A stretch of DNA of 26,005 nt. It comes from a virus. Taxonomy: Duplodnaviria > Heunggongvirae > Uroviricota > Caudoviricetes. The position numbers were made by a program, and so were the translations under genes. The notes under the pieces are model-generated. The model was not told where the DNA came from, did no database searches, and saw nothing but the letters and a program-made list of their open reading frames with translations. How positions within the stretch are numbered: position 1 is the stretch's first letter; every line of letters starts with the position of its first letter. The DNA lies in the IMG/VR virus record IMGVR_UViG_3300000358_000075; one strand, 5' to 3'. Shown here piece after piece: positions 12,073-13,048 of the stretch.

Positions 12073-12725
12073 TGAGTAATAAATATTGCCAGGAGCTGGT
12101 GGAGCTGCGGAACAAACCAGCCCATGAACTGAAGGAAGTGGGCGATCAGTGGCGCACGCCGGATAACATTTTCTGGGGAATTAACACCCTGTTTGGCCCG
12201 TTTGTCCTGGATCTGTTTACTGACGGTGATAACGCCAAATGTACCGCGTATTACACGGCGGAAGACAACGCGCTGGCGCATGACTGGTCAGAACGTCTTG
12301 CGGAGCTTAAAGGTGCTGCCTTTGGTAATCCCCCATACAGCCGCGCCAGTCAGCATGAGGGGCAATACATCACCGGCATGCGTTACATCATGAAACATGC
12401 CAGTGCCATGCGTGATAAAGGCGGGCGCTATGTTTTCCTGATCAAAGCTGCCACCAGCGAAGTGTGGTGGCCGGAAGATGCAGATCATATTGCTTTTATT
12501 CGCGGGCGTATTGGTTTTGAACTGCCTGCCTGGTTTATCCCGAAAGATGAGAAGCAGGTGCCGACAGGCGCTTTCTTCGCTGGTGCTATTGCTGTTTTCG
12601 ACAAGACCTGGAAGGGACCGGCAATCAGCTACATCGGGCGCGATGAACTTGAGGCATGTGGTGAGGCGTTTCTGGCGCAGGTTCGCCAGCAGGCGGAAAA
12701 ACTGGTCAGGGAGATGGCGGCATGA
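12072..12725 (+). CDS. Phage DNA N6-adenine methyltransferase (Dam-type orphan MTase)
   Basis: 217 aa from ATG 12072 (MSNKYCQ…); catalytic motif IV FGNPPYS; no partner restriction gene nearby. Confidence 0.85.
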   Translation: MSNKYCQELVELRNKPAHELKEVGDQWRTPDNIFWGINTLFGPFVLDLFTDGDNAKCTAYYTAEDNALAHDWSERLAELKGAAFGNPPYSRASQHEGQYITGMRYIMKHASAMRDKGGRYVFLIKAATSEVWWPEDADHIAFIRGRIGFELPAWFIPKDEKQVPTGAFFAGAIAVFDKTWKGPAISYIGRDELEACGEAFLAQVRQQAEKLVREMAA

Positions 12726-13048
12726 CGACTTTAACTCAATGCCAGCAGCAGGTGCTGGATATGCTGATTTCTTATCAGAAAGAACGTGGCTTCCCGCCAA
12801 CCAATCAGGAGGTGGCAACCATGCTGGGATACCGTTCAGTGAATGCAGCGGTGGAGCATCTTCGCGCACTGGAGAAAAAAGGCGTCATCACGATAAAGCG
12901 TGGTGTGGCCCGGGGGATCACGCTTCATACCGTGGTGAAGGACGACGACAGCGAGGCGGTCGGGATTATCCGCTCACTGCTTGCCGGTGAGGAAAACGCC
13001 AGGCTGCGTGCAGCCCACTGGTTACATGAGAGGGGCCTGAAAGTATGA
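12722..13048 (+). CDS. LexA N-terminal DNA-binding-domain protein lacking the S24 peptidase domain
   Basis: 108 aa; aligns by eye to the LexA N-terminal winged HTH (…QQQVLDMLISYQKERGFPPTNQEVATMLGYRSVNAAVEHLRALEKKGVITI…RGI…); no Ala-Gly cleavage site or Ser/Lys dyad region. Confidence 0.75.
   Translation: MTTLTQCQQQVLDMLISYQKERGFPPTNQEVATMLGYRSVNAAVEHLRALEKKGVITIKRGVARGITLHTVVKDDDSEAVGIIRSLLAGEENARLRAAHWLHERGLKV

Follow-up and report, generated by a model that had tools for sequence, protein, structure and literature searches.

What does a phage do with a LexA protein reduced to its DNA-binding head? This question is raised by the open reading frame (ORF) at 12722-13048 in IMG/VR virus record IMGVR_UViG_3300000358_000075, a 26,005-nucleotide stretch of caudoviral DNA that we analysed at its full length and call the window. 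We refer to the gene and its 108-residue product as LexA'. The results showed that LexA' carries the LexA winged helix without the autopeptidase and continues into a conserved two-helix tail. Our preferred reading, held tentatively and with slightly less than even confidence, is that LexA' is a RecA-insensitive, tail-dimerised repressor that re-occupies SOS boxes after host LexA has been cleaved. The domain call made in the first-pass annotation was accurate and is ordinary annotation; LexA' belongs with the phage-encoded truncated LexA homologues.

To establish the fold, we combined profile, sequence and structure searches. Residues 1-65 of LexA' matched the full 65-position Pfam profile LexA_DNA_bind (PF01726; E 2.9e-19, 69 bits against a cut-off of 23.7), and a phmmer search of the PDB returned E. 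coli LexA (1lea, 1jhh, 3jso) as the top sequence matches (E ~1e-15). The AlphaFold2 model, with a mean predicted local distance difference test score (pLDDT) of 79.7, showed three helices and a two-stranded wing, the H-H-H-strand-strand topology of LexA. Foldseek placed LexA DNA-binding domains first, with a root-mean-square deviation (rmsd) of 1.4-1.7 Å over 66-68 residues at 50-52% identity; structure prediction thus recovered a LexA-like winged helix, and identity to residues 1-69 of E. coli LexA was about 51%. The Pfam search gave no Peptidase_S24 match in LexA', which stops at residue 108. The protein also did not pass the NCBIfam lexA model TIGR00498 (71 bits against a cut-off of 110.95) and covered only positions 1-91 of its 203. 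Pfam, phmmer, model superposition and the missing S24 match together confirmed the annotated LexA DNA-binding domain without autopeptidase. Because the autopeptidase is absent, LexA' cannot respond to RecA.

About 40 residues follow the LexA-type head and form the tail. The highest pLDDT values of the model lay in its two helices, 74-87 and 93-102. The tail was conserved in relatives at 37-47% identity from Cronobacter, Klebsiella, Enterobacter, Kosakonia, Atlantibacter and Salmonella, among which positions 79, 80, 82, 83, 86, 87, 100 and 101 stayed hydrophobic and Ala97 was invariant. The Foldseek matches that reached past the LexA domain were MntR and MarR/MepR only, winged-helix regulators with extra C-terminal helices; these matches were weak (E at least 0.005, rmsd 8-14 Å) and add little. 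We infer that the tail probably replaces the C-terminal domain of LexA as the dimerisation element. As a separate observation, some library proteins (P0132, P0133, P0149, P0152 and others) carried two LexA_DNA_bind stretches in tandem, another way to a "dimer" of LexA heads without S24.

The first-pass annotation had also stated that the protein ends before the Ala-Gly cleavage site. The Ser/Lys domain is indeed missing, but the stop does not precede the site, since the protein runs on through the tail and phmmer paired LLAGE of LexA' (Ala88-Gly89) with VAAGE of LexA (Ala84-Gly85). The Ala-Gly of LexA' was not conserved: close relatives read LLANEE or LLVGEE, and it was replaced in all distant ones. 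The segment before it was modelled as helix 74-87, with Ala-Gly in the next turn, unlike the strand-loop of LexA.

We then compared the residues that read DNA. E. coli LexA contacts DNA through Ser39, Asn41, Ala42, Glu44 and Glu45 (PMC3091678). LexA' retained four of these five contacts, with Glu44 replaced by Val, and 10 of the 15 recognition-helix residues were the same in both proteins. With these contacts kept and S24 absent, the suggestion that LexA' could occupy SOS boxes independently of RecA is plausible as judged from its sequence.

The LexA' family is already annotated and very common. LexA' matched PHROG 362, 'transcriptional repressor' (phrog_362, E 2.4e-59; residues 1-108 on profile positions 1-106 of 106), and its NCBI/PGAP name is 'LexA family transcriptional regulator'. 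The gene was present in 2233 of 5426 complete E. coli genomes (41%), in up to 4 copies each, nearly always between the methylase (in some genomes a PerC/YfdN-like gene) and RusA. It also occurred in SfV, SfII, SfIV, mEp460, mEp390, cdtI phage, Ayreon and Shiga toxin (Stx) 2a, 2c and 2k phages, and its place in the nin region before RusA, DUF968 and Q was shared by the window, PhiR49_1, Stx2a_1447 and six other genera (in Klebsiella without RusA). Stand-alone LexA heads were common in other phages as well, and a scan of genome contigs returned only two true LexA' loci, plus genuine lexA genes. The full-text literature yielded no functional study of the enterobacterial family, only catalogue mentions (PMC8136144) and the GIL01 gp6 precedent discussed below. 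A survey of Stx phages listed pham 237 (pfam01726) in 15 of them with no comment on its role (PMC8136144), and this pham, matched by its Pfam label alone, is probably the PHROG 362 family. A paper on Gifsy-1 STM14_3218-3220 (PMC9879122) proved unrelated.

To assess selection, we compared the LexA' copies of 84 close loci, which comprised 36 nucleotide alleles and 5 protein variants with no stops. The ratio of nonsynonymous to synonymous polymorphism (pN/pS) was 0.037, with 0.011 in the DNA-binding domain and 0.136 in the tail; pN is biased downwards here, as the loci had been chosen beforehand for protein identity. The full-length architecture of head plus tail was kept at 37-47% identity in at least seven genera. 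The LexA' gene is under strong purifying selection.

The timing of expression was examined from the gene arrangement. Rightward, the window reads O-like, PerC/YfdN-like, Dam, LexA', RusA, KilA-N, DUF968/HNH, Q, lysis genes and terminase. LexA' had no intergenic DNA on either side in the window or in any of the 84 close loci: the methylase stop overlaps its start (ATGA) and its own stop overlaps the rusA start, an arrangement that suggests translational coupling between methylase and LexA'. A GGAG Shine-Dalgarno sequence precedes its ATG. Neither the window nor any of the 84 loci had an SOS box in the interval from -3.2 kb to +437 bp around LexA', and a promoter scan, which is insensitive and was equally silent at the SOS box, gave no promoter-like site upstream. 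Because LexA' overlaps both neighbours in a rightward string to the right of cI-cro, lytic-phase rather than lysogen expression is indicated. Gene order suggests that LexA' would be a delayed-early gene of the rightward (nin) operon, made after induction or infection. The earlier idea that LexA' rewires the SOS response in the lysogen did not fit this arrangement, as the overlaps of LexA' with its neighbours inside the string from O to Q point to delayed-early, lytic-phase expression.

To locate possible operators, we scanned for SOS boxes with a position weight matrix (PWM) built from 20 E. coli boxes; its scores are relative and are not a published heterology index. In shuffled DNA, one site scoring at least 16 occurred per 646 kb. 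Only two sites in the window scored like genuine E. coli SOS boxes (Table 1), the next best reaching 12.3, and exact CTGT-N8-ACAG occurred 3 times against 0.33 expected.

The TACTGTATTTATGAACAGTG box lies 438 bp after the LexA' stop, within the 162-bp intergenic region between rusA and kilA-N, and the KilA-N gene is the first after it, followed by DUF968/HNH and the Q antiterminator. An SOS box 440 bp downstream, as first annotated, is therefore real, but it is not a fixed partner of LexA': the box with its kilA-N module was found in 188 of the 5426 E. coli genomes, against 2233 for LexA', and at 16 of the 84 related loci. In Stx2a_1447 the rusA-kilA gap is only 20 bp and holds no SOS box. We therefore rejected this box, as a general rule, as a dedicated LexA' operator. 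The rusA gene carries, at its 3' end and directly ahead of the SOS-box region, a palindrome, CGAGTTGC-AAATTA-GCAACTCG, that echoes the terminator-like palindromes ahead of Gifsy LexA boxes.

The CACTGTTTTTACATACAGTA box lies inside cI, where it codes the linker residues N-T-V-C-K-N-S. Every one of the 80 viral loci that have this cI allele retained the box, and LexA' was also present in 56 of the 62 such loci with enough flank. The cI gene of Stx2a_1447 has a perfect-scoring box, TACTGTATATAAAAACAGTA, and three of the four amino-acid differences between the window and Stx2a_1447 copies fall in or beside the box. This site is a candidate LexA' target only, at which a roadblock to cI transcription or an internal promoter would be possibilities. 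A third SOS box that recurs, TACTGTAAAAATATCCAGTT (score 22.7-23.7), was observed at 11794-11813 in locus L001 and in some 19 further loci, its distance from LexA' being +3.5 to +6 kb; it sits at the very start of a DNA methylase gene, which in Stx2a_1447 precedes tRNA genes and stx2.

We next compared the operons of distant relatives. A methylase upstream and RusA, DUF968 and Q downstream of the LexA' homologue formed a synteny seen in five other genera. The upstream methyltransferase was of varying family in Cronobacter, Kosakonia and Atlantibacter; Salmonella had one too, with an SOS box and a small ORF between it and the LexA' homologue. Klebsiella had neither methylase nor RusA; there the homologue was preceded by DinI and a small ORF and followed by DUF968 and a Q-like gene. 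A strong SOS box stood at the head of the transcription unit containing the LexA' homologue in three divergent lineages (Klebsiella, L090-L092 7361-8393; Enterobacter, L096/L097 5560-6408; Salmonella Choleraesuis, L098 5561-6357). In the Klebsiella prophages TTGAAC-N15-TATACT overlaps TACTGTTTATTTATACAGTA and is followed by dinI, a GUG-initiated 85-aa ORF, LexA', DUF968 and Q; by its sequence, this would be a textbook LexA-repressed promoter. In Enterobacter and Choleraesuis, the box (scores 20.4 and 27.0) lay about 440 bp upstream of the LexA' homologue, with the small ORF between. In such SOS-headed units an uncleavable LexA head would itself be switched on by the loss of host LexA, in Klebsiella beside DinI, and this fits a negative-feedback or shut-off role.

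The arrangement resembles known prophage operons in which LexA controls antirepressors, namely Gifsy dinI-gfoA/gftA-irsA, 186 Tum and N15 AntC (Lemire et al. 2011, PMC3121763), the same source describing DinI as a modulator of the SOS response. As in the Gifsy operons, a palindrome and an SOS box precede regulator gene(s) in the nin region, and LexA' of the Klebsiella, Enterobacter and Choleraesuis prophages occupies the third position, after (dinI and) a small ORF that takes the antirepressor's place. These small ORFs were homologous among the three, 75-85 aa long, with the motif GYAxIRCxDG...SSFP...YRRGDxVSFxPLQPDEIVGT. They had no Pfam match and were only 17-21% identical to GftA; given their GfoA/GftA position, they are a candidate new antirepressor family. 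The third Gifsy gene is not LexA': we rejected LexA' as the irsA homologue, since Gifsy-2 STM1020 is DUF1367 (E 4e-98). The window itself differs from the Gifsy type in that LexA' lies upstream of the SOS box and the gene under the box encodes a KilA-N protein, for which such a role is only a candidate one.

Together, these results suggest the following course of events. LexA' would be built of a LexA-type winged helix and a two-helix tail serving as its dimerisation element, and, because it lacks the catalytic Ser/Lys, a conserved cleavage site and a RecA-binding domain, could not be switched off by RecA. It would be produced from the rightward delayed-early operon once RecA had already driven the self-cleavage of host LexA, and would then re-occupy CTGT-N8-ACAG operators, presumably repressing rather than activating them. 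Candidate targets would be host SOS promoters, the SOS-box promoter ahead of kilA-N/DUF968/Q, possibly the box inside cI, and the LexA-controlled antirepressor operons of co-resident prophages. The predicted outcome is that the SOS window is closed from inside the induced cell.

Several observations weigh against this reading. Position 44 is never acidic anywhere in the LexA' family, and the Klebsiella and Choleraesuis types also lack Glu45; judging from these substitutions, the specificity of LexA' may have drifted. A lone LexA N-terminal domain binds DNA weakly. No SOS box was found at four loci of Cronobacter, Kosakonia and Atlantibacter, and 33 of the 84 related loci had no box scoring at least 16 in the scanned flanks, so that a phage-internal target of LexA' is optional. 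GIL01 gp6, the sole truncated LexA homologue of a phage to have been characterised, works as an activator and on an operator of its own (PMC6182141).

Comparison with host LexA (TIGR00498; 1jhh, 3jso) bears on the same points. The two proteins share the DNA-binding fold and Ser39, Asn41, Ala42 and Glu45, and some LexA' homologues lie behind SOS boxes as host lexA does, which resembles lexA autoregulation. Host LexA has 202 aa against the 108 of LexA', which lacks Ser119/Lys156, the dimer formed by the C-terminal domain and the RecA response, besides the replaced Glu44. The LexA 1-84 cleavage fragment, which is the DNA-binding domain separated from the C-terminal one as in LexA', retains residual operator binding; in the cell this N-terminal fragment is removed by ClpXP/Lon. 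Its exposed end reads ...VAA, whereas LexA' ends ...ERGLKV with the conserved helical tail, and LexA' may be stable and dimeric, unlike the fragment. The proposed logic of a mobile element that damps or reshapes host SOS is shared with GIL01 gp7, DinI and plasmid PsiB, which act on LexA or RecA protein, whereas LexA' would act on DNA operators.

The precedent of gp6 also supports an alternative, in which LexA' is a phage-specific regulator of altered specificity that binds its own palindrome, or the SOS box placed ahead of a promoter, and activates or represses a phage promoter, leaving the host SOS regulon untouched. The protein comes from GIL01, a Bacillus thuringiensis tectivirus, recognises GaCACAnnTGTGaC and activates late promoter P3 from this palindrome of its own (Fornelos et al. 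2018, PMC6182141). Like LexA', it is phage-encoded and essentially a LexA winged helix without the peptidase domain. A further likeness would be that gp6 is produced soon after SOS induction and works beside host LexA; by its description, gp6 is shorter than LexA' and has no two-helix tail. The non-acidic position 44 and the loss of Glu45 in some subfamilies would suit such a regulator, and if the promoter is TTGATA-17-TAAGTT (13512-13540), the centre of the 13486 box would lie near -51, upstream of the core. Set against this, gp6 uses its own palindrome rather than the host LexA box, whereas the E. coli type of LexA' retains the gamma-proteobacterial recognition residues and most of helix 3. 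The E. coli loci offer neither an intergenic region nor a private palindrome beside LexA', and the scanned interval from -3.2 kb to +437 bp is free of SOS boxes. Finally, gp6 belongs to a tectivirus of a Gram-positive host, and the lambdoid phages that carry LexA' already have Q for late activation. We consider this alternative unlikely, though it deserves to be kept in view; if LexA' does have an operator of its own, phages would have turned the LexA head into a private regulator a second time, independently of gp6.

The wide spread and conservation of LexA' (41% of complete E. coli genomes) would be expected of a gene that benefits the lysogen, and the Klebsiella type stands behind its own SOS-box promoter, independent of phage early promoters. 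Both points would agree with a moron-like LexA' expressed in the lysogen, which permanently damps or rewires host SOS and sets the induction threshold. We find this improbable, as the LexA' of the window overlaps both neighbours in the early-right operon with no promoter-like site upstream, and with a constitutive uncleavable LexA neither SOS nor LexA-dependent prophage induction could proceed. Cells with an uncleavable LexA, the lexA(Ind-) phenotype, are sensitive to DNA damage. A dominant-negative or decoy LexA', acting through mixed dimers, as a trans-cleavage substrate or inhibitor via Ala88-Gly89, or by titrating RecA filaments, could call on the pairing of LLAGE with the LexA cleavage site. 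The C-terminal domain of LexA forms the dimer and contacts RecA (structures 1jhh, 3jso, 8trg), and this domain is absent from LexA'; the inactive heterodimers with host LexA that had been proposed are thus not supported. We rejected the heterodimer or decoy role on this ground and on the Ala-Gly, unconserved even in close relatives and set in a segment modelled mostly as helix, and regard it as very improbable. That many database entries are fragments or fusions could suggest a functionless relic left by the decay of a full-length phage repressor. This reading is scarcely credible: a truncated pseudogene was rejected because of the pN/pS of 0.037, with 36 alleles free of internal stops, because head and conserved tail are kept across at least seven genera at 37-47% identity, and because the DNA immediately downstream codes RusA with no S24 relic.

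The preferred reading of LexA' as a RecA-insensitive repressor matters because SOS governs prophage induction, Shiga-toxin release, colicin production and antibiotic-induced mutagenesis. If it is true, an uncleavable LexA made only after induction, carried by 41% of complete E. coli genomes and by Stx2a and Stx2c phages, would be an unrecognised SOS brake and also a means of competition between prophages. In its broadest form, LexA' would be a RecA-proof stand-in for LexA by which induced lambdoid prophages re-repress host SOS genes (toxins, colicins, mutagenic polymerases), their own or co-resident antirepressor or KilA-N operons, and perhaps cI; the induction hierarchy of polylysogens would then depend on it, and across about 40% of E. 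coli strains it would modulate both SOS mutagenesis and the output of Stx phages. This extended claim is rather doubtful. The family is easy to study, being small and probably soluble, with a known candidate operator and members in the cultivable SfV, mEp460 and PhiR49_1.

The window is a lambdoid prophage (Table 1). In its left part lie integrase, cro, a CII-like and a Rha/Ant-like gene, together with the minus-strand gene for CI with its S24 domain; CI sets the orientation of the early operons. Over the 2.5 kb round LexA', identity was 99.2% to Escherichia phage PhiR49_1 and 93-95% to mEp460 and the Stx2a and Stx2c phages. The KilA-N start at ATG 13603 agrees with the PhiR49_1 annotation.

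Table 1. Positions of LexA', the SOS boxes and other features in the window
Feature	Position	Strand	Remarks
LexA' gene	12722..13048	+	ATG start, 108 aa; stop codon 13046-13048
LexA' residues 1-69, LexA-type winged helix-turn-helix	12722-12928	+	Pfam, PDB, model
LexA' residues 70-108, family-specific tail	12929-13045	+	Helices 74-87 and 93-102
Canonical SOS (LexA) box TACTGTATTTATGAACAGTG	13486-13505		PWM 21.9; exact CTGT-N8-ACAG
Near-consensus SOS box CACTGTTTTTACATACAGTA	8201-8220		Within cI coding sequence, linker between helix-turn-helix (HTH) and S24; PWM 24.2
Phage Dam-type N6-adenine methyltransferase	12039..12725	+	Pfam PF05869, E 1.4e-45
RusA Holliday-junction resolvase	13045..13440	+	Pfam PF05866, E 6.4e-15; same neighbour annotated in E. 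coli genomes
KilA-N domain protein	13603..14418	+	Pfam PF04383, E 1.3e-15; PHROG 129 'transcriptional regulator'
CI-type repressor, HTH + S24 peptidase domain	7737..8429	-	PHROG 4, PHROG 6201, NCBIfam S24-type matches
Palindrome at 3' end of rusA	13415-13436
Q-type antiterminator	15429-16181	+	Two Antiterm repeats; one in-frame stop at 15852-15854
Rha/Ant-type second antirepressor-like gene	9328-10476	+	PHROG 821/373/63

Three further features of the prophage were observed. Given the in-frame stop in Q, whose intact homologue in a Cronobacter prophage has 252 aa, the window prophage may be defective for late transcription. Runs of N, standing for masked or unknown bases, occupy 7224-7299, 11546-11628, 23667-23676 and 24356-24365; one falls within the PerC/YfdN-like gene just upstream of the methylase and another near the terminase gene, which looks truncated because of it. 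The Rha/Ant-type gene directly follows the CII-like gene, so that the prophage pairs a cleavable CI with two antirepressor-type genes.

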